DNA from: an uncultured Candidatus Saccharibacteria bacterium
Lineage (GTDB): Bacteria > Patescibacteriota > Minisyncoccia > SW-4-49-11
Direction: 5' to 3'
Assembly (NCBI GenBank): GCA_964585065.1
Contig: CAZPCB010000001.1
Span: forward strand, 162,866 to 226,865
Length of the DNA: 64,000 nt
Part shown: piece after piece, positions 66 through 61,947 of the stretch
Position numbering within the stretch: the first letter of the stretch is position 1
How the letters are laid out: each line of letters starts with the position of its first letter
Program-made: the position numbers and the translations under genes
The notes under the pieces: model-generated
Told to the model about the DNA's origin: nothing
The model's database searches: none
The model's input: only the letters and a program-made list of their open reading frames with translations

Positions 66-129
66 TGTTGTAAATTTAGGTAAAGCAACACTACATAACC
101 TTGAGTATCAATCAAAAGTTAAAAAGATG

Positions 130-133
<4 letters not shown>
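66..133 (-). promoter_or_regulatory. 23S precursor processing stem, 3' trailer half (pairs with 3120-3189)
   Basis: Plus 69-83 (gtaaatttaggtaaa) and 121-133 (aaaaagatgagtt) are exact reverse complements of 3175-3189 and 3120-3132. This is the classic RNase III-type stem enclosing the mature rRNA. Confidence 0.7.
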
Positions 134-3119
<2,986 letters not shown>

Positions 3120-3125
<6 letters not shown>

Positions 3126-3189
3126 TCTTTTTAAATTCTGATTTATACTTTTGGTGAAAGTAGTAAAATTGCATTTACCTAAATTTACT
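3120..3189 (-). promoter_or_regulatory. 23S precursor processing stem, 5' leader half
   Basis: Complementary to 69-83 and 121-133 (15 and 13 nt exact). Confidence 0.7.
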
Positions 3190-6568: not shown

Positions 6569-8314
6569 ATGGATATTATTAAAAAAATTCCCAAACCGAT
6601 TATACCGCGTAATTTTAAGAAAATTACCCTTCCTAAATCCCCTATCAAAATTCCACGGCCAAATATTGATATGCCCAAATTACCACCAAGCCTACAGAAA
6701 AATGTATTCTTGCTATTTATTATTAGTTTTATTGTTATTGTTGTAATTGGTAGCCTGATTTATCGAGGGCTTACCAAAGAAATTGCGACAACAGGAGGTA
6801 CTATTAAAGAAGGTATTATTGGACAACCTCAATATATTAATCCAGTATTATCATTCTCTAATGATGTCAATAAGCCTGATCGTGTTTTAGAATATCTGAT
6901 TTATCCAAGTTTATTCCGTCTTGATAAAAATGGAAGTTTATCTAATGAATTGGTTGAGAGCTATACTGTAGGAGATAATGGCAAAGAATATATATTCAAG
7001 ATAAAATCAGGTATTAACTGGGATGATAATACTCCTCTTACTATTGATGATATTATATTTACCCTGCAAACTATACAAAATCCAGCCTATAATAGTCCTC
7101 TTAATTCTGCTCTCAAGGGAGTTACTATTACGCGAGTTGATGATGCTACGCTTAAATTAAATCTTAATTCGAGCTACTCTCCATTTTTATCTAATCTTAC
7201 TTTTGGAATATTACCAAAACATATTTGGCAAAATCTTGAGCCAAGTGCTTTTCTCTTAGCTGAAGCTAATCTCAAACCTATTGGAGCTGGTAAATTTAAA
7301 TATAAATCTATTCAGAAGAATAAGGATGGGAATATTGTATCCCTTACTATTGAGAGAAATCCTAATTATTTTGGAGAAAAACCTAATATAGAGAATTTTA
7401 CTTTAGTATTCTATTCCAAAGAAGATGATATGGTTCAAGATTTTAAACAAAATAATCTTCAAGCTATTACTCAGCTCAAAGCCCCCCTATCTGACTCTTC
7501 TCGTTTTCAGCTAAATGCTATGAATATCCCTCAATCATTTGGTATTATCTTTAATATCAAAGATCCTCTCTTAGAGAATAAAGAAATTCGCCAAGCTATA
7601 TCCAATGCAGTTAATAGAGAACCTATTATTAATAATGTATTACAAAATCAGGCCACTCTTATCAATGGGCCATTAACTCCATTTAATCAATATTATGTAG
7701 CGACAGAAACAGCCTTTGATATAGAGAAAGCCAAGAAAACTCTCGATGATGCTAATTGGAAAGATATAGATGGAGATGGCGTGCGAGAAAAAGATAATAA
7801 AAAAGCTGAATTTACTATTCTAGTTGCTAATGGAAATAAAGTTGAAGAAGTGACCAATACACTACAGGCTCAGATTCGAGAAATTGGAATACAAATGAAT
7901 ATTGAATTAATATCATTTGCTGATTTATCTAGTAATCAAATTCGTAATCGATCCTATCAAGCTTTATTCCTCGGGCTAGGACTTAATATATATCCAGACC
8001 CGTATATTTATTGGCATTCTTCTCAAATAACCAATCCAGGACTTAATTTATCTCAATATACTAATATAAATAATGATGGATATTTGGAAACTGCTCGCAC
8101 CAATATTGATACCAATGTAATTGCCTCTAGCCTACAACAATTCCAGCAACAAATTGCAACTGATGTCCCTGCGATATTTGTATATTCACCAAAATATCTG
8201 TATTATACCAATCCTATTATCAAGAATATTACTGTCTCAATTGGGAATTCTTCAGTAGACCGCTATGCTTCTATATCTGAATGGTATGTCAAGACAAAGC
8301 GAGTACTCAAATAA
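6569..8314 (+). CDS. ABC transporter substrate-binding protein, family 5 (peptide/nickel type), membrane-anchored. No cognate permease or ATPase adjacent.
   Basis: 581 aa. N-terminal TM anchor, then an SBP_bac_5-like fold (KPNIENFTLVFYSKEDDMVQDF..., typical length and periodicity). Confidence 0.6.
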   Translation: MDIIKKIPKPIIPRNFKKITLPKSPIKIPRPNIDMPKLPPSLQKNVFLLFIISFIVIVVIGSLIYRGLTKEIATTGGTIKEGIIGQPQYINPVLSFSNDVNKPDRVLEYLIYPSLFRLDKNGSLSNELVESYTVGDNGKEYIFKIKSGINWDDNTPLTIDDIIFTLQTIQNPAYNSPLNSALKGVTITRVDDATLKLNLNSSYSPFLSNLTFGILPKHIWQNLEPSAFLLAEANLKPIGAGKFKYKSIQKNKDGNIVSLTIERNPNYFGEKPNIENFTLVFYSKEDDMVQDFKQNNLQAITQLKAPLSDSSRFQLNAMNIPQSFGIIFNIKDPLLENKEIRQAISNAVNREPIINNVLQNQATLINGPLTPFNQYYVATETAFDIEKAKKTLDDANWKDIDGDGVREKDNKKAEFTILVANGNKVEEVTNTLQAQIREIGIQMNIELISFADLSSNQIRNRSYQALFLGLGLNIYPDPYIYWHSSQITNPGLNLSQYTNINNDGYLETARTNIDTNVIASSLQQFQQQIATDVPAIFVYSPKYLYYTNPIIKNITVSIGNSSVDRYASISEWYVKTKRVLK

Positions 8315-8319
8315 GCTAT

Positions 8320-9012
8320 ATGGGCTATTTTATATTTGATAATGAGGAACAAAGTCTTATACAAGATGAAATTCATCATATCACCAATGTATTACGCCTC
8401 AAGCCCAATGAAATAATACAGGCTACTGATGGTAAGGGTACTCTTTATACTCTCAAAATAAGCTCTCTAAAGCCATTTCAAACAGAAATCATTGAATCCT
8501 TCTCATCTGAGAGGACAAAGCACTCTATTCGGGTAATTGTAAGTATTATCAAAATCCCCTTATTAGAATTGATTATACAAAAATTAACTGAGATAGGAGT
8601 TGATGAAATTATTATTACCAAAACAGATTATGCCCAAATTAACCTGAAGGATATTAAGCCTAAACAAAATCGTTGGAATACGATTATAAGTACTGCCTGC
8701 AAACAATCTGAGCAAGTATATTTCCCTACTCTTACTATACAAGAATTAAACCAAATTATGTATACACCAAATAGTCTCAATCTCATTGGGGATACTCAAT
8801 ATAATAAACCTATACCTATTCATAGTATTGATATTGAAAATCATTCTGATATCAATTTACTAATAGGTCCTGAGGGTGGATTTTCTCAAAAAGAATATGC
8901 TGAATTAGTATCTCAATATTCTTATATTGCAGTATCATTCAACCACAATATATTGCGAGCTGAGACAGCTGCTATTGTAGGGGCTGGTATACTCAAAAGT
9001 TTAAGCCTCTAA
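8320..9012 (+). CDS. rsmE: 16S rRNA (uracil1498-N3)-methyltransferase RsmE
   Basis: C-terminal LLIGPEGGFSQKE...NHNILRAETAAIVGAGIL motif. Start set at internal MGYFIFD to avoid overlap with the upstream gene. Confidence 0.75.
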   Translation: MGYFIFDNEEQSLIQDEIHHITNVLRLKPNEIIQATDGKGTLYTLKISSLKPFQTEIIESFSSERTKHSIRVIVSIIKIPLLELIIQKLTEIGVDEIIITKTDYAQINLKDIKPKQNRWNTIISTACKQSEQVYFPTLTIQELNQIMYTPNSLNLIGDTQYNKPIPIHSIDIENHSDINLLIGPEGGFSQKEYAELVSQYSYIAVSFNHNILRAETAAIVGAGILKSLSL

Positions 9013-10299
9013 TTCTGTTTCGGCAGTTTCTATCAAATCAACTTCTACCTTTCCAATTTCATAGGTATCCACATTTTTGAGTTTACGCTCAATTGCCCGA
9101 GCTCGGGTTGCTCCTGCATCAATTTGATTAGATGCTTCTTGTAATTTTTTCTGTGTTCTCTCTAATATTTCTCCAAATCGTCCAAATTCAGTTTTTACCT
9201 CAGATAAAGTTTGCCATATTTCACTCGATTGCTGTTCTATAGCAAGGGTTCTGAATCCCATTTGAAGACTATTAAGTATTGCGGTAATTGTAGTAGGTCC
9301 TGTAATCATAACTCGATATTCTCGCTGTATTGACTCTACTAATCCTGGGATTTTCAGTAATTGGGCATATAATCCTTCAATTGGAATAAACAAAATAGCA
9401 AAATCTGTAGTATAAGGAGGATCAATATATTTAGTTTGTATTTTCTTCCCTTCATCTTTGAGTCTCTTCTCAATAGCCTTATTAGCAGCATCAATAGCTG
9501 GTCTATCATTGGCATCTTCGGCCTCAATTAATCTCTGATAATCCTCTATAGGGAATTTGGCATCAATTGGTAGCCAAATATGATTGAGATTCTTATCTTT
9601 ACCAGGTAATTTGATAGCATATTCAACTACATCTTTTGAGTCTTTTTTAGTTGCAACATTAGCCTGATATTGCTCTTTGGTGAGAATTTGCTCTAAGAGA
9701 TTACCAAGTTGAACTTCACCCCAAGTTCCACGAGTTTTAACATTAGATAATACTTTTTTGAGATCCCCAACTCCCACAGCTAAATTTTGCATTTCCCCAA
9801 GCCCCTTATGTACTTGCTCTAATCGCTCACTTACTGATTGGAATGATTGAGCTAATCGCTTCTCGAGAGTAGATTGTAATTTTTCATCTACTGTCTCTCG
9901 CATTTTCTCAAGTTTTTGATTATTGTCTTTTTGTAATTCAGTTAATCTCTTCTCTACCGTTTCTCGAATACTATCTAATTTAGTTTCATTTTGTTTAGTG
10001 AGAGAAACCAATTGCTGAGAAAATATTTCTAATTGGCTTTTTTGCATAATAGATGACTCATGAATTCTTTTGAGTAAAGAATTCCCAAAGGTATTGAGAT
10101 TATTCCCAAGCTCTATTCTCCCCTCTTGGGCTAATTCACGAGAGTCTTTACGGGATAATTGTATATCATCCTTGAGGATTTTTTCTGTACGAGCTAGAAT
10201 ATTAGCAAAATCTCCTCCTACATTACTTTTACGAGTCAATAATATTACAATAATCACTATTTGTAATACAATAATAATACCTGCTTCAATATATACCAT
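9001..10299 (-). CDS. rmuC: DNA recombination protein RmuC
   Basis: N-terminal TM, long coiled coil, C-terminal RmuC core (DFAILFIPIEGLYAQLL...VMITGPTTITAILNSLQMGFRTLAIEQ). Confidence 0.8.
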   Translation of the reverse strand: MVYIEAGIIIVLQIVIIVILLTRKSNVGGDFANILARTEKILKDDIQLSRKDSRELAQEGRIELGNNLNTFGNSLLKRIHESSIMQKSQLEIFSQQLVSLTKQNETKLDSIRETVEKRLTELQKDNNQKLEKMRETVDEKLQSTLEKRLAQSFQSVSERLEQVHKGLGEMQNLAVGVGDLKKVLSNVKTRGTWGEVQLGNLLEQILTKEQYQANVATKKDSKDVVEYAIKLPGKDKNLNHIWLPIDAKFPIEDYQRLIEAEDANDRPAIDAANKAIEKRLKDEGKKIQTKYIDPPYTTDFAILFIPIEGLYAQLLKIPGLVESIQREYRVMITGPTTITAILNSLQMGFRTLAIEQQSSEIWQTLSEVKTEFGRFGEILERTQKKLQEASNQIDAGATRARAIERKLKNVDTYEIGKVEVDLIETAETELEA

Positions 10300-30882: not shown

Positions 30883-30969
30883 GGAAGTGTGGCTGAGCGG
30901 TTGAAGGCGGCAGTCTTGAAAACTGTTGTAGGTTTACCCCTACCAGAGGTTCGAATCCTCTCACTTCCG
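30883..30969 (+). tRNA. tRNA-Ser (anticodon TGA), type II with long variable arm
   Basis: GGAAGTG acceptor, anticodon loop CTTGAAA, variable hairpin GTAGG..CCTAC, T-arm AGAGG-TTCGAAT-CCTCT. No CCA encoded. Confidence 0.9.
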
Positions 30970-31157
30970 CATATATTTTTATCTTTTGGTATTTATGCCA
31001 AAAGATAAAAATAATATTTGAAGAAGTGACAGAGAGCAATAGCATTGCTCTCGTGAGGATGAGAAAGTCGGAGCCCGGTGTGAGTTTGTGCTATGCACAA
31101 GGCGAACACGGCGAGACGGGGTCGCGAGAATTTTCCGTCAGGAAAATTACTTGTGAC

Positions 31158-31176
31158 CGAATCCTCTCACTTCCGC
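31158..31176 (+). repeat. 19-bp exact direct repeat of the tRNA-Ser(TGA) 3' end (att-like)
   Basis: cgaatcctctcacttccgc is identical at 30952-30970 and 31158-31176. The intervening 187 bp is GC-richer and contains hairpins (30977-31010; 31031-31052). Confidence 0.7.
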
Positions 31177-54801: not shown

Positions 54802-55422
54802 ATGAAATCTATATTAGAAGCCCTCAATTGGCGCTATGCCACAGACAAATTCCTAGATACTCCTATCCCAGAGGATATATTACATACCATTATAGAGGCA
54901 GCTCGTCTCGCCCCTTCATCTATGAATTTTCAACCATGGAAATATATCTCTATACAATCTCCAGAAATTCGTAATCAAATATTCGAAGCTGGAGGGAAAC
55001 AAGAAGCCATCAATGCTCCTACCCTACTAGTACTCACCATACCCAATATTCTCACTGCGGAAAACGTAAATAATGTTGTTCTGGCTGCTGCTAAAGCTCG
55101 GAATGCCGATCCAGCTACTCTTGATGGATATCGTAATATGCTACAAGGCTTTATAGATACAACTGAACCTAATAAATTCTTTGATTGGAGTCGTAGACAA
55201 GCCTATATTTCACTCGGGATGCTATTACTTGCTGCCGCTCAACTCGAAGTGGATGCCGCTCCTATGGAAGGTTTTGATGCCACGAAAGTAACCGAGATAT
55301 TAGGGCTCAAAGATTATACCGCCGTCACCCTGATTGGACTTGGCTACCGCAGCCCAGAAGATGATCATCAAAGCTGGCCAAAAGTCCGATTTGATATAGA
55401 GGAAATTTTAGAGGTGAGATAG
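54802..55422 (+). CDS. Nitroreductase family protein
   Basis: RLAPSSMNFQPWKYISIQ ... typical ~200-aa nitroreductase. Confidence 0.8.
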   Translation: MKSILEALNWRYATDKFLDTPIPEDILHTIIEAARLAPSSMNFQPWKYISIQSPEIRNQIFEAGGKQEAINAPTLLVLTIPNILTAENVNNVVLAAAKARNADPATLDGYRNMLQGFIDTTEPNKFFDWSRRQAYISLGMLLLAAAQLEVDAAPMEGFDATKVTEILGLKDYTAVTLIGLGYRSPEDDHQSWPKVRFDIEEILEVR

Positions 55423-55430
55423 AACCTAAA

Positions 55431-55480
55431 AAAGAAAGAGCTTGATAAGCTCTTTCTTTTGTTTATTTTGGCTGTGTTTT
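55431..55480 (+). terminator. Rho-independent terminator of the nitroreductase gene
   Basis: aaagaaagagctt-gata-agctctttcttt followed by tgtttatttt. Confidence 0.75.
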
Positions 55481-55656
55481 TTGGACGAAGTTCGAACTTT
55501 TTTTGAGCAAAAACCCCAATAAGGAAGCGGGCAGGCAAAAATTTCTTCCCCCCAAACCCCTTCCTTTGTTCCCGCCTGCTTGGGCTTCGCCCCCAAAACT
55601 TTTCGGCGGACGGAATTTGAGGCTGTGCCAATTTCATTGGCGCGCCGCCTAAAATT

Positions 55657-58600
55657 TTAAACTTGTTTCGTGCCTCGACAGTATGGAAATTTTGAACAAC
55701 CATAAAATTTTCCATATCTGCCTTTGCGCAAAATCATTTTTGATCCGCACTTAGGACAGGTCTTATCACTCGAAACTGCAGGGCTATCTTTAATATTATC
55801 ACTCACAGACTTTTCAACCAAGGTATAGCCCTTGCAATGACAGCAAAATCGTCCGTATCCAGTAATTAAGTCTGGGTCTCTAAAATCTTTGTATTCCCTT
55901 ATTTCTTTACATTTCGGGCATTCTTTCATCTCGCCATTTTGCAAACCCTCAATCGTTTCGTGAATGTGACTAATTACATTATTTTTTACAACACCATTTT
56001 TAATCAAGTTGCCGATTCTTTCATTAAGATTTGAAATCGGATCGTTGCCAATGTTGAATTTGTTTATTCGCAAAAATTTATATCCATAGCTTTCCAATAC
56101 TTTTTGTCTATAAACATCTCCGTCGGTGTAATAATCTTGGTAATTAAATTCGTTTACCTCATCAACATCTTTGAAGTGTTCCCTAAATCCGTCATATTCA
56201 ATTATGACTTTGTGTTCTTGGTGGGTCTCATCCTTGAAGACTAACAAAAAATCAACTTTATAATTCGGGTGGTTATATGTTTTATCAAACTGTTTCAAAT
56301 ATTTACCAAGCTCAAATTGTGGAATAAATTCTATATTGTCTTTATTTTTCTTCCAGAAGTCAGTTTGATAAAACCAGTTCATAACCTCTGGTTCCATTTT
56401 TGACTTCTCATCAGCTTCGCTAATGCTTCGTTCTTTTTTCGCTTCGTTCAAAATAAAAGAGTAATGCCTTATTGCCTCACCAATTGAGCCGTTGTATTTA
56501 TCAATCGGCTTACTTAAAACAAAGTTCATCGTTTCTTTGGCACGACTAAAGCCAACATTTAATCTCTGGGCTTTTATTTTTCCGTCTTCTTCAATATCAA
56601 CATCGTTCAAATCTTTAATGAAAACACCCCACAAATGATCATCTTCTTCTGTTGCAACCATTGAATAATATATAATATCCCTTTCTTCACCTTGGCAGGT
56701 GTCGAAAGTCATAATTTTTAATTTTAACTTGTCGTAAAAATAATCCTTTTCTGGAATTTTGCTTATTAACTCGACAAGCAATTTTTGCTGATTGGTGTGG
56801 GGTGTAATAATTCCAACACTTTGATTGCTATCAATTTCTTTTAATTTTTTCAGTTCGGAAATTATAAATTCAACTTCAAGCGTGTTGGTATTTTGTGCTA
56901 ATTCTTTTTTCCCGTCATGCTTAACAAAAGAAAACTTAATAACGTCGTCAATAGCTTTCCCTCTAATTTTCATCACTTGTAAGCTGTCTCGATAAAAATA
57001 TTTGTTAGAGTAGGAAATAATCTCTTTATACCCTCTAAAATGTTTTAGCAGTTGAGCGTTATAATTTGTTATAAATTCAAAAAACTCAAGAATAGAAGTT
57101 TTGATATTAAACTTCCCGAGTTTTACGAGGTTTATTCCTTCGCTTGAAACATTTTTAACAAAACAATCCCTGAGATTATTTAAATATTCTCTGTTTGTAT
57201 CGGTGCGAGCTTGAGCAGTTTTTACATTACTAAATTGTTTTTTGTCTCCAAGAATCAAAATCTTTTTTGCACGCAACAAAGCAGGAAATGCTTGGGCAAT
57301 GCTAACCTGCGAAGCCTCATCAATAATCACAAGGTCAAAAATCTCTGGCTCAAGCGGTATGTATTCCGCATAATCTCTTATTCCTGCCAATATACAAGGG
57401 AATGCTTCTTTAAGCTTCAAAAATTCATCTTTCGGGAATCTTTGTTTTGTTCGGATTATATCTCTTAGCGCTTTTGCAGTCGCTTTATTGTTTTGATAAA
57501 AATCAATCAATCGTCCGTCCAAAAGAAAAGTCATTTGAGCGGTAACAAGTGCCTCAATATTTTTCTTTTGACCAGCATAATTAAGTGTGGGAATACTATT
57601 AAAATCTTTCTCAACTTTCTGCTTCAAATTTATAAACCTGATCAATGTGTCAAAGTCGAGATCTGAAATTTTTACTAATTCATTTGAGCAAAAAGTTTTA
57701 AAAGAACCCAAATCAATTTTAAGTTTTTTTATTGTATTCGGGTATTTTGGCAAATTTGTATTTAAGAATTTTAAATCATCGCCAATTTGCATTAGGTTGT
57801 TTAATACACCTAAAAGCGAATCGTCATTTATTGTCTGATGAATAAATCTTAAATAATCAAAATTGATCTGATATTTTTCGTCCAATTTTGCCTTTAGTTC
57901 TTCGGCAAATTGATAAATTCCTAAAACTATTTTCAAATCCTCTAAATTTTTATGCGCTTCAATTTCCGAAGTTATGCTAAAAGATTTTTTAAATTCCTTG
58001 TCTAAATTTTCAATTTTTTCTTTTTTAAACGCATAGCCGAAAAGCCAATTTTTCTCTTTTTCGTAATTGCTTATAAAATCTCTTAATTTTTCTAACGAGG
58101 GCTCGTCAAAATTATCGAATGTTGACAATAGCACCAAATTATTGGTGTAAACTTCTTTAATTTTAGCAACAGAAGAAGAAAGGATATTTAATAACCACAA
58201 ATATTTTTGAAAGTTGGATATGTCTTTGAAGTCATTGATTGAAAAATTGAGCAATTCGAAAAGTTTTGCTTCTTTTTCTTTCTCGTCCTGATCAATAATA
58301 AGTTTATCTTTTAGCGACAAAAATATTTTTTTAAACTCTTCAAGCTCAATCGCTGATTCCGTTTGATTTAGAACCTCTTCAATTTCAACGGGGAAACCCT
58401 TATTTACATAATAGGATTCCAAGTCAAATAACTCGTGAATTTCTTTTAAATCAATTTCCTCATAAGCCAATATTTCGGCTTGTAAATCTTCCTTAAGTGT
58501 ATTGCCTGATTTTTCAATATTGCTCTCAAGTGTTCCATAATCTTTTTTAACGGCTCGATAATGCGTTTTAATATTTTCTACAGCTGTGGTTGCTAAGATT

Positions 58601-60237
58601 TGGCTGTATGTGCTTCCTGTTTTTCCGAGTCTCAAAATTGGATTTTGAAAATTTTTATCGAGGCGAACTTTATTCATTGTCTCGGTAATTTTTTCTTCTA
58701 CTACATCAAGGGCTTCTTTTTTATCTGACAAAACTAAAACTGATTGATTTTTCAGAATAGAATCAAAAACAATTGCGGTTATTGTATGACTTTTACCTGT
58801 TCCTGGGGGTCCCTCAACAGTTATGTATTTACAATCGTCTTTTCTAATCGCAGATAAAATTTGAAGTTGTTCGCTATTTAGCGGAATTGGACTATTGAAA
58901 ACTAAACGATCGCTTGTTTCAGTATCGTCCCATGATTCTTCAACGCTTGGATTAAAGGGCTGAGGATTTTTATGAATAAAATCCTCAATCAATTTATTGA
59001 AAGCTTCCCCCAAAACACTGTCGCCCGCCATGAGCAATTTTAATATTTCTTCGTAATCATTGACTAACGCCTCGTCTGATTTATCAAATAAAGCCAAGTA
59101 GCAATTATTTGAAGCTCTGACAAGAAGACTTTTTGCAATTTGTTGCTCGGAATTGTTTATATCTATGCTTTTATCAAGTTCAAACAAATTTGTTATTTCA
59201 CTCAATATTTCGCTGACCACATCTCTAAAATCGTTTTGATGTTGGGCTAAATAGATTATTCTTTCCGATATTATTTTTAAATTTCTCTTTTTACCTTTTT
59301 CTTGATTATATTCTTGAGTTATATACTCAAGAGCTTTTTTGTTTATATACACCTGCGAATCAAACTCAATTGTCAAAACTTCGTTTTGTTTTTCAATCCC
59401 AAATGGAATGTAAAAAATTGGGAATTTGGCATTATTGAAAGTTATATCGCAAAAATATAAATAAAATTCTTGTTTATCTAAAATGGTTCTGTTTCTCTCC
59501 ATTTCATATATTTCTGCGAACAAATCTCCGACTTGAAAACTTTCAAAGAATGAATGAATATTTAATTTGATGTCGGCAAGCTCAAAAACATCTTTCAATT
59601 GTTTTGAAATATCAACTTTTTCTTTTGCTAGCAAAAGTTTTACAACTTCAGAAATTTTGTTTTCCAGAGAGGAAGATAAAACTGCGGTTAGTTCTTCCTC
59701 CATTAAATAAATATTGTTTTCGTCACCAAGGTTTAAATTCTCTAAAGGTTTTTCAATATTGCTTACAAACGGCAAAACTAAATCTGTTTTTAGAATTTTG
59801 GCGGCAGCTTCAAGGGAAGTATTTAACGCTTGATCATATTCTTTTTTGTATAGAGTGGCTGATTTTTCTATTTCCTCGGCGATTTGTTCAAGGATTTTGG
59901 TAATTTGTTTGCTAGTTATTTTTTCCGTCTGCAATTTAACTAAATCCAATAAATTTTTGGGAATATTTGTCCTATAAACCCCTTTTGAAATTGTATTGAG
60001 AGTATTTTTATCAAATGCGTGGTCTATCGCTTTATTTACGAGATTATTAAAAGAAGGATATTTATTGAGATTTAATCCGACAAGCAAATTATTACTGCTC
60101 CTAAATTGAATAATTCTTTTTGGATTTTTTCTTTTATGGAAATCTGTTTCCAAGAAATCCATAAAATATTTGGCAACTTCTTTTATAAATACCAAACCAT
60201 TTTTATCTTCGATTTTAATATTTTCTTTAGTTGCCAT
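55657..60237 (-). CDS. 1526-aa multidomain protein: ~450-aa N-terminal region (DUF4011-like), Upf1/Dna2-like SF1 helicase, DUF559/Vsr-like PD-(D/E)XK endonuclease, zinc ribbon and topoisomerase-type C4 zinc finger
   Basis: Walker A VEGPPGTGKSHTITAIV. Motif II LVIIDEASQV...LILGDKKQ. Motif V/VI MTFDTCQGEERDIIYYS...NVGFSRAK. DUF559-like VDFLLVF...KVIIEYDGFREHF...LESYGYKFLRI. C-terminal CPKCGSKMILRKGRYGKFYGCSKFPYCRGT. Confidence 0.85.
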   Translation of the reverse strand: MATKENIKIEDKNGLVFIKEVAKYFMDFLETDFHKRKNPKRIIQFRSSNNLLVGLNLNKYPSFNNLVNKAIDHAFDKNTLNTISKGVYRTNIPKNLLDLVKLQTEKITSKQITKILEQIAEEIEKSATLYKKEYDQALNTSLEAAAKILKTDLVLPFVSNIEKPLENLNLGDENNIYLMEEELTAVLSSSLENKISEVVKLLLAKEKVDISKQLKDVFELADIKLNIHSFFESFQVGDLFAEIYEMERNRTILDKQEFYLYFCDITFNNAKFPIFYIPFGIEKQNEVLTIEFDSQVYINKKALEYITQEYNQEKGKKRNLKIISERIIYLAQHQNDFRDVVSEILSEITNLFELDKSIDINNSEQQIAKSLLVRASNNCYLALFDKSDEALVNDYEEILKLLMAGDSVLGEAFNKLIEDFIHKNPQPFNPSVEESWDDTETSDRLVFNSPIPLNSEQLQILSAIRKDDCKYITVEGPPGTGKSHTITAIVFDSILKNQSVLVLSDKKEALDVVEEKITETMNKVRLDKNFQNPILRLGKTGSTYSQILATTAVENIKTHYRAVKKDYGTLESNIEKSGNTLKEDLQAEILAYEEIDLKEIHELFDLESYYVNKGFPVEIEEVLNQTESAIELEEFKKIFLSLKDKLIIDQDEKEKEAKLFELLNFSINDFKDISNFQKYLWLLNILSSSVAKIKEVYTNNLVLLSTFDNFDEPSLEKLRDFISNYEKEKNWLFGYAFKKEKIENLDKEFKKSFSITSEIEAHKNLEDLKIVLGIYQFAEELKAKLDEKYQINFDYLRFIHQTINDDSLLGVLNNLMQIGDDLKFLNTNLPKYPNTIKKLKIDLGSFKTFCSNELVKISDLDFDTLIRFINLKQKVEKDFNSIPTLNYAGQKKNIEALVTAQMTFLLDGRLIDFYQNNKATAKALRDIIRTKQRFPKDEFLKLKEAFPCILAGIRDYAEYIPLEPEIFDLVIIDEASQVSIAQAFPALLRAKKILILGDKKQFSNVKTAQARTDTNREYLNNLRDCFVKNVSSEGINLVKLGKFNIKTSILEFFEFITNYNAQLLKHFRGYKEIISYSNKYFYRDSLQVMKIRGKAIDDVIKFSFVKHDGKKELAQNTNTLEVEFIISELKKLKEIDSNQSVGIITPHTNQQKLLVELISKIPEKDYFYDKLKLKIMTFDTCQGEERDIIYYSMVATEEDDHLWGVFIKDLNDVDIEEDGKIKAQRLNVGFSRAKETMNFVLSKPIDKYNGSIGEAIRHYSFILNEAKKERSISEADEKSKMEPEVMNWFYQTDFWKKNKDNIEFIPQFELGKYLKQFDKTYNHPNYKVDFLLVFKDETHQEHKVIIEYDGFREHFKDVDEVNEFNYQDYYTDGDVYRQKVLESYGYKFLRINKFNIGNDPISNLNERIGNLIKNGVVKNNVISHIHETIEGLQNGEMKECPKCKEIREYKDFRDPDLITGYGRFCCHCKGYTLVEKSVSDNIKDSPAVSSDKTCPKCGSKMILRKGRYGKFYGCSKFPYCRGTKQV

Positions 60238-60241
60238 ATTT

Positions 60242-60445
60242 CTACTTAATTAAATCATCAACACCAACTTCAAGCGCCTTGGCGATCTTAGTTAGTGTTT
60301 CAATAGTTGGGTTTGTATTTACTCCGTTTTCAACCTTAACAATGGTGTTAAGCGACAAATCGGCGAGGCGAGCAATCTTTTCGAGAGATAGCCCCTTTTT
60401 AGCCCGCAGTTTCTTTAAGTTTTCAGTAATTTTATTATTTGACAT
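60242..60445 (-). CDS. XRE-family helix-turn-helix transcriptional regulator (67 aa)
   Basis: LKKLRAKKGLSLEKIARLADLSLNTIVKVENG Cro/C1-type HTH. Stop 4 nt before the helicase start codon. Confidence 0.8.
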   Translation of the reverse strand: MSNNKITENLKKLRAKKGLSLEKIARLADLSLNTIVKVENGVNTNPTIETLTKIAKALEVGVDDLIK

Positions 60446-60583
60446 ATCTTTCGTAATTGTATAACATTATAGTATATAGAATATAATATAAAAGTTTTTT
60501 TGTTGATACTATAATGATAACGAATTTAATCAATTTTGTAAATGGATACTTAGGGAGTTCCTTAGCGTTGCCCGCGAATGGTT

Positions 60584-60610
60584 TGGCGGAGAGAAAGGGA
60601 TTACGAACCC
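60584..60610 (-). repeat. 26/27-nt direct repeat of the tRNA-Ser(GCT) 3' end (att-like), 150 bp downstream of the tRNA
   Basis: tggcggagagaaagggatt(a)cgaaccc at 60584-60610 versus 60761-60786. Intervening DNA carries hairpins ttgaaacc-gagt-ggtttcaa, gcaaat-ccc-atttgc, cgggaaac-ggga-gtttcccg and a T-arm-like palindrome ggattcgaatcc. Confidence 0.7.
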
Positions 60611-60760
60611 ATCGCAAATGGGATTTGCTCCTTGAAACCACTCGGTTTCAATACATCCTCCACGGGAAACTCCCGTTTCCCGACCCCTTCCCTGGATTCG
60701 AATCCCTTTTTACTAACTCCCAGAAATTAAAAACAGGGATATTATCCCTATTCTTAATTT

Positions 60761-60851
60761 TGGCGGAGAGAAAGGGATTCGAACCCTTGATAAGTTTTAC
60801 CCTATGCCACGTTAGCAGTGTGGTGCTTTCGACCAGCTCAGCCATCTCTCC
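60761..60851 (-). tRNA. tRNA-Ser (anticodon GCT), type II, CCA encoded
   Basis: rc: GGAGAGATGGCTGAGCTGGTCGAAAGCACCACACTGCTAACGTGGCATAGGGTAAAACTTATCAAGGGTTCGAATCCCTTTCTCTCCGCCA. Confidence 0.85.
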
Positions 60852-60988
60852 AGAATTAAATTAACTATTATAGTTTACCTAAATTTTGACAATTTTGCAA
60901 CTTATCGCATATACAAAGCTTTATCTCTAATCTAATATTAACCCTATTTCTCATGCTATAATAAAATAAATAGATAAAATAAAAAGTT

Positions 60989-61837
60989 GTGAATATATTT
61001 AAAGGAAGGAAAATAGTAATAGCGACAGCCCATAATAAAGAAGAGGTCATAGCCCCTCTACTTGAAGAAGCTTTGGGTGTGGAAGTTATTATCCCTAAGA
61101 ATTTTAATTCAGATAAATTTGGGACTTTTACCAGAGAGATAAAGAGAGCTGGAGATCAGCTAGAAGCTGCAAGAGCAAAAGTCTATGCCGCTATGGAGCA
61201 AGAAGGAGTAGATTTAGGAATAGCAAGCGAAGGGAGTTTTGGCTCAGATCCATCAACCCCATTCATACAATCTAATCTTGAATTAATATTATTTGTAGAT
61301 AAAAAGAATAAGTATGAAATTAAGGGACATTATAGAACTTCAAAAACAAATATGTCCGGAGTATATATCTCAAACATACAAGAAGCTTTAGACTTTGCCA
61401 AAAAAATTGGATTTCCTCAACATGGTATTATCGTGAGAAAAAGTGACAAAAATCATACTAAAATTACAAAAGATATTCATACTGAAGCTGATTTAAAAGA
61501 AAAAGTAACTCAATTACTTTCATCCCCTTTTACCAAAAAAGTTTTTCTCGAAACTGATATGCGAGCTCACAAGAATCCTACCCGTATGCAGGCCATTGAA
61601 CTTGCAACCAAAGATTTAATCAAAAATATTACATCTCGCTGTCCTCACTGCTCTGCATCTGGATTTGCTGTGATAAATTATGAAAAGGGACTACGCTGTG
61701 CACATTGTAAATTCCCTACAGATATCCCCCTTTATGATATATATCAATGTAATATATGTGGATATAAAGAAAAGGAATTAATTACCAAATATGGTGATTT
61801 TGCCAATCCTCAATATTGTGACATTTGTAATCCCTAA
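60989..61837 (+). CDS. Hypothetical protein with C-terminal double zinc ribbon
   Basis: 282 aa. CPHCSASG...CAHCKF and CNICGYKE...CDICNP. Confidence 0.45.
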   Translation: MNIFKGRKIVIATAHNKEEVIAPLLEEALGVEVIIPKNFNSDKFGTFTREIKRAGDQLEAARAKVYAAMEQEGVDLGIASEGSFGSDPSTPFIQSNLELILFVDKKNKYEIKGHYRTSKTNMSGVYISNIQEALDFAKKIGFPQHGIIVRKSDKNHTKITKDIHTEADLKEKVTQLLSSPFTKKVFLETDMRAHKNPTRMQAIELATKDLIKNITSRCPHCSASGFAVINYEKGLRCAHCKFPTDIPLYDIYQCNICGYKEKELITKYGDFANPQYCDICNP

Positions 61838-61947
61838 GTGAGAATGATAATTTACATTACAAAACAAATACAATACCACTATCCCCTATACTGATAAGAC
61901 AAGAGATTCTATTCATCGGTGTCATACACAGCTATACCATCATCATG

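Follow-up and report, generated by a model that had tools for sequence, protein, structure and literature searches.

Gene-less folded modules with copies of tRNA 3' ends at two serine tRNA genes of a Candidatus Saccharibacteria genome

The tRNA-Ser(GCT) locus and its repeated 3' end

A stretch of 64,000 nucleotides from the genome of an uncultured Candidatus Saccharibacteria bacterium (assembly GCA_964585065.1, contig CAZPCB010000001.1), here called the window, carries an intact tRNA-Ser(GCT) gene followed by a folded spacer and by a second copy of the tRNA 3' end. Spacer and copy make up a unit called here the type B module, which is present, missing or replaced by a unit of different sequence (type A) in related genomes. 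Open reading frames (ORFs), repeats and folds were analysed in the window, and loci or contigs of relatives, denoted by L-numbers, were retrieved for comparison. The G+C content of the window is 34.5%, and four tRNA genes were called by ARAGORN. The features of the tRNA-Ser(GCT) locus, and of a locus of the same layout at tRNA-Ser(TGA), are collected in Table 1.

Table 1. Features of the two tRNA-Ser loci and of the cassette adjoining one of them
Feature	Position	Strand	Remarks and basis
tRNA-Ser(GCT)	60761-60851	-	intact, CCA encoded; ARAGORN; Rfam tRNA, 56.1 bits
X1, 3' part of tRNA-Ser(GCT) from T loop to CCA	within 60761-60851	-	target and repeat segment
Type B module, whole	60582-60760	-	179 nt; missing from the L023 empty site; no Rfam family
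Module-borne terminator-like hairpin, AGGGAUAAUAUCCCU then GUUUUUAAUUU	60724-60760	-	directly 3' of the tRNA; inverted repeat, fold
X', mirror-image (inverted) copy of T arm plus first part of the acceptor 3' strand, AAAGGGAUUCGAAUCC	60694-60709	-	inverted repeat
Core hairpin CGGGAAAC-GGGA-GUUUCCCG	60663-60682	-	fold; kept in all type B copies and in L024 6140-6350
Core hairpin UUGAAACC-GAGU-GGUUUCAA	60632-60651	-	fold; type B copies; L024 region
Core hairpin GCAAAU-CCC-AUUUGC	60614-60628	-	fold; type B copies; L024 region
X2, displaced or duplicated tRNA 3' end	60582-60610	-	direct repeat; ancestral flank directly after X2 in relatives
Cassette at the CCA end of X2	55473-60581	-	5,109 bp; missing in L146, L148 and L149, present in L147
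Cassette left-end motif	60550-60581		common to L122 486-524; a 37-nt stretch following X2
XRE/C-protein-like regulator	60242-60445	-	Pfam; directly past the copy
Superfamily 1 (SF1) helicase, 1526 aa, Top1-type zinc ribbon	55657-60237	-	Pfam
Cassette right-end hairpin motif, GGCGGG...GGAAGGGGTT...CCCGCC	about 55500-55600		common to L122 4930-5010
GCCAAA, second copy of the 6-bp repeat	55467-55472	-	first copy 60582-60587; followed by the ancestral terminator and nitroreductase
tRNA-Ser(TGA)	30883-30970	+	ARAGORN, Rfam; second locus of the same layout
75-nt imperfect palindrome, last 13 nt of the tRNA and one hairpin arm against the other arm and X' (GAAGAAGUGA)	30958-31032	+	inverted repeats, fold
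Type A core, three-way junction	31058-31169	+	covariance model, 80.7 bits, E 1e-19
Copy of the tRNA-Ser(TGA) 3' end, CGAATCCTCTCACTTCCGC	31158-31176	+	19-nt exact direct repeat; k-mer scan

The 3' end of tRNA-Ser(GCT), GGGTTCG-AATCCCTTTCTCTCCGCCA, has a downstream copy, GGGTTCGTAATCCCTTTCTCTCCGCCA, on the minus strand. The copy of the last 26 nt of the tRNA, CCA included, spans 60584-60610 and is separated from the tRNA end by 150 nt; when GGGTTCGAATCCCTTTCTCTCCGCCA is aligned to it, 26 of the 27 positions match, the difference being one inserted T. This repeat had been noticed in an original prediction made from the letters alone, and was confirmed by ARAGORN, Rfam and repeat analysis. Within it, 21 nt (TTTGGCGGAGAGAAAGGGATT) are repeated exactly and in direct orientation at 60582-60602 and 60759-60779, 177 nt from start to start. 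The chance that a given 21-mer recurs within a few hundred bases is about 1e-9 by our own estimate. The identity block begins at the GGG of the T stem and runs to the tRNA 3' end; X2 contains, in this order, the T-arm-like GGGUUCGUAAUCCC with one extra U, the acceptor 3' strand, and GCCAAA.

The predicted fold of a 196-nt stretch has an energy of -79 kcal/mol, much lower than for shuffled sequence (z = -6.2). Within the spacer are the palindrome GGATTCGAATCC (60694-60705), as had been predicted, and four hairpins rather than the three announced; the one next to the tRNA includes a terminator-like call at 60735-60749. X' and the segment 60771-60786 form an inverted repeat (94%), and X' is able to pair either with the 3' part of the tRNA itself or with the downstream copy, being paired with 60594-60610 in the minimum free energy fold. 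The last bases of the tRNA plus one hairpin arm, and the other arm plus X', make up a palindrome of about 60694-60786, centred at 60742. No credible gene was identified in the module, where the listed ORFs of either strand are short and run into the tRNA or into one another. Rfam 15 scans of the two window loci and of L024 found no family near the gathering threshold, but only chance-level matches, such as those of miRNA models to AT hairpins; a recognised RNA unrelated to integration, which the original prediction had set against its own proposal, did not emerge.

Occupancy of the tRNA-Ser(GCT) site among relatives

Relatives were identified by comparing a 27-nt tRNA probe to one genome per species, which yielded 25 loci, several of them in Paceibacteria/Parcubacteria genomes with an identical tRNA. 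Further contigs were chosen as encoding the nitroreductase found downstream in the window, or its close homologues. The tRNA-Ser(GCT) is identical in L004, L007, L014, L020, L023 and L024. L023 carries an empty site. Its sequence is 98% identical to window positions 60751-63739, a region including DUF6671, deaminase and photolyase-related genes, and immediately 3' of the tRNA come CCAAAATTAAAAAAAAGAAAGAGCTTGTCGAAGCTCTTTC, the ancestral terminator, and a nitroreductase gene homologous to window 54802-55422. Relative to this site, the window holds 5.28 kb of additional DNA (55473-60760).

Other relatives exhibit different states of the same site. Type B modules followed directly by the ancestral terminator were found in L146, L148, L149 and L152-L154, and in the first three the nitroreductase is 100% identical to that of the window. 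Type B is followed by other flanks or genes in L024, L159/160 and L165/166; in the window and in L147 the helicase cassette comes next. Type A modules occupy the same tRNA gene in L004, L014, L150/151, L155/156 and L157/158, a truncated type A remnant resides in L162-L164, and L155 features a chimeric hairpin, half type A and half type B. The flank past X2 in L146, L152, L004 and L007 is the same as the L023 flank. Types A and B alternate among hosts with nitroreductases 79-100% identical, and across the same hosts type B copies are 94-99% identical. Overall, the 179-nt type B unit occurs in many genomes, ahead of at least four different downstream flanks, and several short assembled contigs stop at or within the module. 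Because the site is empty in L023, filled by type B alone in L146, L148 and L149, and by type A in others, the partial duplicate of tRNA-Ser(GCT) is an insertion polymorphism and not a local duplication. The comparison of genomes for insertion polymorphism had been suggested at the outset, together with the notion that tRNA-Ser genes are repeatedly used as integration targets. The four states of the site (empty, B, B plus cassette, A) bear out repeated use; a specificity for tRNA-Ser does not hold, since type A modules follow 17 tRNA isotypes among the matches listed.

Additional rearrangements mark the region. In L162 the truncated type A remnant (8390-8560) resides at the usual place, on the nitroreductase side, and tRNA-Ser(GCT) (9292-9382) is found about 800 nt away in opposite orientation, which indicates an inversion at the locus. 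In L150-L166, the interval from the nitroreductase to the photolyase-related (DPRP) genes is a hypervariable hotspot around tRNA-Ser. Its contents vary among close relatives, and include an AlwI-type restriction-modification pair, an Exo_endo_phos gene with an epimerase, and NUDIX, adh_short, DUF6671 and bPH/SHOCT genes. An RNA-like region of about 200 nt was identified in L024 (6140-6350, plus strand) and L007 (5256-5466, minus strand), two species whose genes are about 80% identical. It is 98.5% identical between the two, stands alone with its own terminator, and contains the three type B core hairpins (83% over 89 nt); it carries no tRNA end, has no Rfam match, and is not found in the window.

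The XRE/helicase cassette lies directly past the copy, as had been stated; the cassette is, in contrast, not the body of the same island, but a separate, later insertion. The X2 junction reads ...CTCTCCGCCAAA / ATAAAAAAAGAAAGAGC in L146 and ...CTCTCCGCCAAA / CCATTCGCGGG... in the window, where the far end of the cassette reads ...AACACAGCCAAA / ATAAACAAAAGAAAGAGC (slashes mark the junctions). The 5,109-bp segment is therefore bracketed by 6-bp GCCAAA repeats. The helicase shows a weak restriction-endonuclease-like match in Pfam, and with PADLOC its helicase region hits PDC-S37, MkoA/MkoC and Hhe, which are candidate defence families; the cassette is defence-like. L122 has the same non-coding ends but a different cargo, and its island is bracketed by a 13-nt repeat made of a tRNA terminus and flank. 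Given the ends shared with L122, the cassette is therefore a recurrent type of island inserting at tRNA-like 3' termini, and the data suggest that islands headed by an XRE gene, conserved at their termini and devoid of a recombinase of their own, form a family. Parts of the right-end motif were also spotted in L131, L032 and L172. A third copy of the tRNA end, or a type B-like module, was sought at the far end of the cassette by local alignments, which gave only GCCAAAAT; long inverted repeats around the cassette were not found.

Type A modules at tRNA genes

The tRNA-Ser(TGA) locus carries a type A module. The original prediction had mentioned a second tRNA-Ser with a partial copy, which is present; a spacer family shared by the two loci was not borne out, as no homology was detectable. 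The core consists of AAAGUCGGAG ... CGAGAC (P2), GGUCGCG ... UGUGACC (P3), and the junction GAC/CGAAUCC. The z-score of the fold is -9.0, and a distance of 6 nt separates X' from the end of a sigma-70-like promoter match (30986-31015). With a covariance model built on type A sequences, a single copy was recognised in the window and type B was missed, and homology of the two types was rejected on this ground. Types A and B are thus at least two unrelated families of one design.

Metagenomes were searched with the pattern GGGGTYGCG-N25-50-GTGACCGAATCC, which matched at least 120 loci; a handful of these matches are GC-rich, lie inside genes and look like chance. A family of tRNA-derived structured elements, one of the options raised at the start, is therefore real, and shows strong covariation. 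Among the matches listed, a same-strand tRNA was found within 400 nt upstream in 79 instances (17 isotypes, 26 anticodons; median distance 110 nt), with 69 of the 79 modules lying within 160 nt of the tRNA; the sequence past GAC/CGAATCC corresponds to the 3' end of the upstream tRNA over 15-29 nt in 41, and many tails are degenerate. The identity block starts at the CGAATCC of the T loop.

Moving away from the tRNA, type A units comprise a terminator-like hairpin and X', complementary to the tRNA 3' part and sometimes split by a hairpin with a CAA...UUG stem; next, AAAGNCGGAG, a variable hairpin, and CGAGN'C; last, GGGGUCGCG, a variable hairpin, YGUGAC, and CGAAUCC plus the tRNA 3' end. A three-way junction thus makes up the core, and the helix closing it imitates the T stem and part of the acceptor stem. 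At the long-range N-N' positions 82 of 84 sequences have a Watson-Crick pair, with all four pair types in use, and double compensatory changes were observed at 14 of the 22 RNAalifold pairs in 40 aligned sequences. The G.U pairs of the P3 base helix were imposed by the search pattern; they can form on the tRNA-sense strand alone, and the free positions neighbouring them covary. Type A is a three-way-junction RNA on the tRNA-sense strand, supported by covariation. Duplexes of X' with its own X are more stable than those with mismatched partners (-11.65 vs -9.86 kcal/mol; p = 8e-4), and a strong palindrome occupies the tRNA-end/X' position in 68% of the 68 loci within about 170 nt of a tRNA.

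Resemblances to known RNAs were not substantiated. GAGAAAGUCGGAG is reminiscent of the RNase P P4 motif GAGGAAAGUCC, and GAUGAGAAAG of the hammerhead core; neither RNase P nor hammerhead matches were found at E up to 10, and by inspection the helices required by those folds are missing. Kissing of the hairpin B loop (CUGC) with AGCAG loops in P2 was discarded, as their co-occurrence is inconsistent. No type A match was found in viral contigs, phages and plasmids (pattern scans of IMG/VR, blastn of phage and plasmid collections), and a viral or plasmid parent was rejected. Full-text literature searches retrieved no description of such modules.

Some type A loci deserve separate mention. In L031 (2985-4100) two identical modules, 842 nt apart, flank an ORF of about 190 aa and are each followed by the same 30-nt flank, in a layout resembling a cassette array. 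A shorter, divergent type A-like unit (covariance-model score 16-21 bits) lies past tRNA-Ser(GCT) in low-GC metagenome-assembled genomes labelled 'Actinomycetota' (L015, L016, L022, L001). Three copies reside on the L015 contig (44-128, 4052-4136, 4219-4303), in which the repeat reaches more than 35 nt past the tRNA end. The apical parts of P2 and P3 (as in L028, L047, L096) are rich in GCGAAGC, GAGCGAAGCGA and CGAGCG, motifs that can form tandem G.A pairs. GCGAAGC also occurs as a DNA mini-hairpin of unusual stability, and loops rich in it could hint at a single-stranded DNA form.

The tRNA-Pro and tRNA-Ile genes of the window have no downstream 3'-end copy in a k-mer scan. The latter, tRNA-Ile(GAT), stands alone, 48 kb from a 23S rRNA gene located at the window start (123-3128, minus strand); as neither 16S nor 5S genes were called by Rfam in the window, the rRNA genes appear to be unlinked.

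Origin of the modules and their meaning

The partial duplicate is probably one of the two boundary repeats of a 179-bp highly structured module, free of protein genes, inserted in the 3' part of tRNA-Ser(GCT); a probability of about 0.6 is assigned to this reading. The layout corresponds to an insertion in the segment from T arm to CCA. In the manner of tRNA-integrating islands, the module would bring along a new 3' end for the tRNA together with an intrinsic terminator and so preserve an intact tRNA, and the original 3' end would lie 150 nt downstream by the ancestral flank, though either copy may be the original one. Terminator hairpin, X' mirror copy, three-hairpin core, and sense copy X2 follow one another in this order, and in the predicted fold pairing of X' and X2 would close the core with a helix similar to a tRNA acceptor/T-arm minihelix ending in CCA. 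Such modules behave as miniature non-autonomous integrative elements, coming and going between near-identical strains, and would be moved by an enzyme acting in trans by recombination at the segment from T loop to 3' end; the module would also be transcribed, and its folded RNA may have a function. Cassettes, too, are located beside a tRNA-end copy, the helicase cassette of the window at the CCA end of X2.

Several points weigh against this reading. No recombinase is encoded in the module; the integrase that the original prediction proposed to look for did not turn up either, as a phmmer search of the 64-kb window, with two seed proteins only, revealed neither XerD-like nor large-serine-recombinase-like ORFs. 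All-against-all clustering of the ORFs beside type A loci revealed no recurring protein family, the largest cluster including 6 of about 120 loci. A serine recombinase lies inside the bracket only in L044 and L087, and the five recombinase groups retrieved adjoin tRNA genes but possess neither type A modules nor further tRNA-end copies. Type B copies (five full-length distinct ones, plus the L007 variant) are too uniform for a proof by covariation. A terminator-like hairpin separates the tRNA from the putatively transcribed module. The identity of L023 to the window is 98% on one flank of the site and 84% on the opposite flank, and exchange of A for B between relatives might reflect homologous recombination via the flanking genes. 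Neither an excised circle nor an empty-site read has been directly observed. Homologous exchange via conserved flanks also contributes to the swaps from strain to strain.

The immediate neighbours of type B encode, according to Pfam, the XRE regulator, the helicase and a DUF6671 protein, and no autonomous partner is known for type B. In L044 the type A bracket encloses 5.4 kb, encoding both a complete large serine recombinase and a Schlafen/AlbA_2 protein; in L087, tRNA-Ala is followed by an N-terminally truncated recombinase ORF and then by the module; in L038 the bracket holds a type III restriction-modification system without recombinase. The large serine recombinase was tried as the mobilising enzyme and not retained: homologues are abundant (2472 at E<1e-30), yet 0 of 5 groups have a type A module. 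Because of these five groups, the link between modules and serine recombinases comes down to L044 and L087. The best-supported reading, we infer, is that the module is a non-autonomous unit served in trans.

The recombinases have peculiar features of their own. In every case examined (L167-L182, L044, L087, L065) the 3' coding end overlaps a tRNA gene antisense, as at L167, where the recombinase (7001-8614) runs over tRNA-Tyr (8512-8594). The C-terminal residues are therefore encoded antisense to the tRNA; the tail of the L087 protein contains GFEP, read from the T loop. The tRNAs overlapped are Tyr, Lys, Pro, Ala, Ser and Ser-like, and all five groups share this arrangement. Perfect inverted repeats, which start 4-6 nt inside the tRNA 3' end, enclose the recombinase gene, one arm falling within its 3' coding region (L044, 4068-4217 and 5674-5823, 150 nt; L172, 6750-6958 and 8328-8536, 209 nt). 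Second, nested pairs surround the cargo (L044, 546-792 and 3825-4073; L172, 4656-4832 and 6595-6771). Together these repeats could represent an inversion system or a palindrome-building process, and the hairpin plus X' of the miniature modules could be a collapsed form of such repeats.

These inverted repeats bear on the alternative that survives best, though it is unlikely: the module would be a decay remnant, made of the fused attL and attR of a larger tRNA-integrated island whose interior, recombinase included, has been deleted, leaving an inactive fossil. Cargo-bearing versions in the same bracket (L044, L038) and the intermediate L087 fit this view, and the collapse of repeats of 150-209 nt would produce hairpin plus X'. 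A process of decay should leave ragged ends, whereas among the matches listed the cargo-less form is uniform in its closeness to the tRNA (69/79) and far more numerous than cargo-bearing forms. Type A keeps compensatory changes and type B is more conserved than neighbouring proteins, which argues for selection or recent spread, not for neutral decay; moreover, near-identical strains differ in occupancy.

Conservation would also be accounted for, with less likelihood, by a tRNA-like small RNA beneficial to the host, processed as a tRNA (RNase P, 3' trimming, CCA) and exchanged by homologous recombination. The strong structural conservation with sense-strand G.U pairs, a closing helix ending in the NCCA of the tRNA itself, the promoter match at the type A locus, the 94-99% identity of type B across diverged hosts, the related region standing alone with its own terminator in L024 and L007, and the lack of an associated protein gene are all in keeping with it. 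In very close relatives, however, the site is empty (L023) or holds a non-homologous module, and a needed host RNA would be neither dispensable nor interchangeable. The tail copies whichever tRNA is upstream (17 isotypes among the matches listed), hence a copying or integration process is needed, and shared function alone does not suffice; many tails are also degenerate.

A degenerate tRNA-Ser, tmRNA or other tRNA-shaped gene made of spacer and copy is very improbable. It would explain the T-arm-like hairpin, the acceptor 3' strand and the CCA; ARAGORN, proposed at the outset for pseudo-tRNA calls, detected no tRNA or tmRNA at 60582-60760, Rfam 15 at E up to 10 found no tRNA, tmRNA, YrlA or tRNA-clan match on type B spacer and copy, its only tRNA match being the tRNA-Ser(GCT) gene itself, and by inspection the sequence offers no 5' acceptor strand, D arm or anticodon arm. 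Local duplication or slippage, with a spacer of ordinary intergenic DNA, can give rise to short direct repeats, and AT-rich intergenic DNA does form hairpins, but it is effectively refuted by the empty site, by the recurrence of the same 179-nt unit before different flanks, by unrelated units of the same design in other strains that elsewhere follow 17 isotypes among the matches listed, and by the two fold z-scores.

The insertion of a structured module is to be viewed against known systems. The T-loop sublocation of island integration in tRNA genes is said to have been described by K. P. Williams in NAR in 2002. Islands at tRNA and tmRNA genes, as catalogued in Islander, feature an intact tRNA and a displaced 3' fragment, as far as the accessible part of the source tells (PMC4383910). 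With the same proviso, both window tRNA-Ser loci are similar in having an intact regenerated tRNA and a displaced 3' fragment in direct orientation; further likenesses are an identity block that starts in the T loop or T arm and continues a few bases past the tRNA 3' terminus, the existence of empty and filled alleles, and tandem elements at one tRNA. Unlike these islands, the module measures 179 nt and lacks integrase and cargo, so that membership in the classical class fails on the integrase; it includes an inverted copy of the target beside a folded core that is conserved, and a single core family, type A, serves at least 17 isotypes.

Tycheposons of Prochlorococcus are, in the portion of the text available, tRNA-linked variable islands of streamlined genomes with partial-tRNA flanks, in which successive integrations push older elements outward; they use tyrosine or large serine recombinases, and their cargo is related to defence or niche (bioRxiv 10.1101/2020.12.28.424599). 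Streamlined genomes and the tandem pile-up with partial tRNAs are shared features, on that portion of the text. Tycheposons were found through their integrases, and no conserved structured non-coding module is mentioned in that portion (bioRxiv 10.1101/2020.12.28.424599); the modules described here are mostly gene-less and belong to the candidate phyla radiation (CPR). The ssrA-specific genomic islands of Dehalococcoides have direct repeats, mentioned 21 times in the portion of the source at hand (PMC3146451). These islands are kilobases long, versus 179 nt here. We know of no mini module or folded core in them.

Miniature inverted-repeat transposable elements (MITEs), and the cis-mobilizable elements (CIMEs) of streptococcal integrative and conjugative elements, are non-coding, keep both ends, are presumably served by an enzyme in trans, and outnumber autonomous forms. 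The module likewise has no coding capacity and retains both ends, but these are a target copy and its mirror image rather than transposon terminal inverted repeats, and an autonomous partner with the same ends has not been firmly identified, the recombinases of L044 and L087 lying inside the type A bracket. In integron attC sites and in the folded attP of CTX phage, an imperfect inverted repeat folds one strand into a target-like duplex. Similarly, X' pairs with X, and units can stand between cassettes (the L031 tandem, the only case seen). In contrast to attC, no IntI/Xer-type enzyme was seen nearby (no tyrosine recombinase in the window by phmmer with two seeds), target direct repeats measure 20-29 nt, and covariation includes G.U pairs typical of RNA. 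Differently from IS110 bridge RNAs and from TnpB/IscB omega RNAs, no neighbour protein recurs, the Pfam matches of immediate neighbours being unrelated, and the would-be guide X is paired with X' in the predicted folds, at odds with guide-RNA systems. Viral tRNA-like structures and bacterial YrlA Y RNAs (PMC4201824) share with the module an acceptor/T-arm-like helix, NCCA, and a non-tRNA body. Rfam scans gave no match to these families, and unlike such mimics the module reproduces the adjacent tRNA exactly and goes with insertion polymorphism. Small structured modules free of cargo, beside which cassettes accumulate in tandem, represent a novel form of integration at tRNA genes.

Bacteria of the CPR, or Patescibacteria, have tiny genomes. 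To our knowledge few recognisable mobile elements reside in them, and gene exchange in the CPR is therefore poorly understood. The locus shows a strain-level turnover at tRNA genes through gene-less folded modules of about 180 nt copying the tRNA 3' end, and defence-like cassettes adjoin such modules (the helicase here; in other genomes type III restriction-modification and a Schlafen-type gene). Abundant and strongly covarying, the RNA-like motif of the type A core has no counterpart in Rfam. Even under a conservative reading, the modules are useful markers of island boundaries, and coincide with the ends of several assembled contigs. A bolder idea, of lower likelihood than the host small RNA, is that the module is a self-contained, retargetable integration device, in which paired X' and X, as RNA or folded single-stranded DNA, would present the target copy to an enzyme of the host or one acting in trans, and specify where the unit and an attached cassette are inserted; joint changes of X and X' would have let one core colonise at least 17 tRNA isotypes, with a logic comparable to that of integron attC sites or bridge RNAs, though unrelated to either. 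If the paired target copy does specify the insertion site, it would represent a new principle of programmable site choice, and a device of this type would make the choice of tRNA targets nucleic-acid-templated, and would be a main route of gene-cassette exchange in the CPR.

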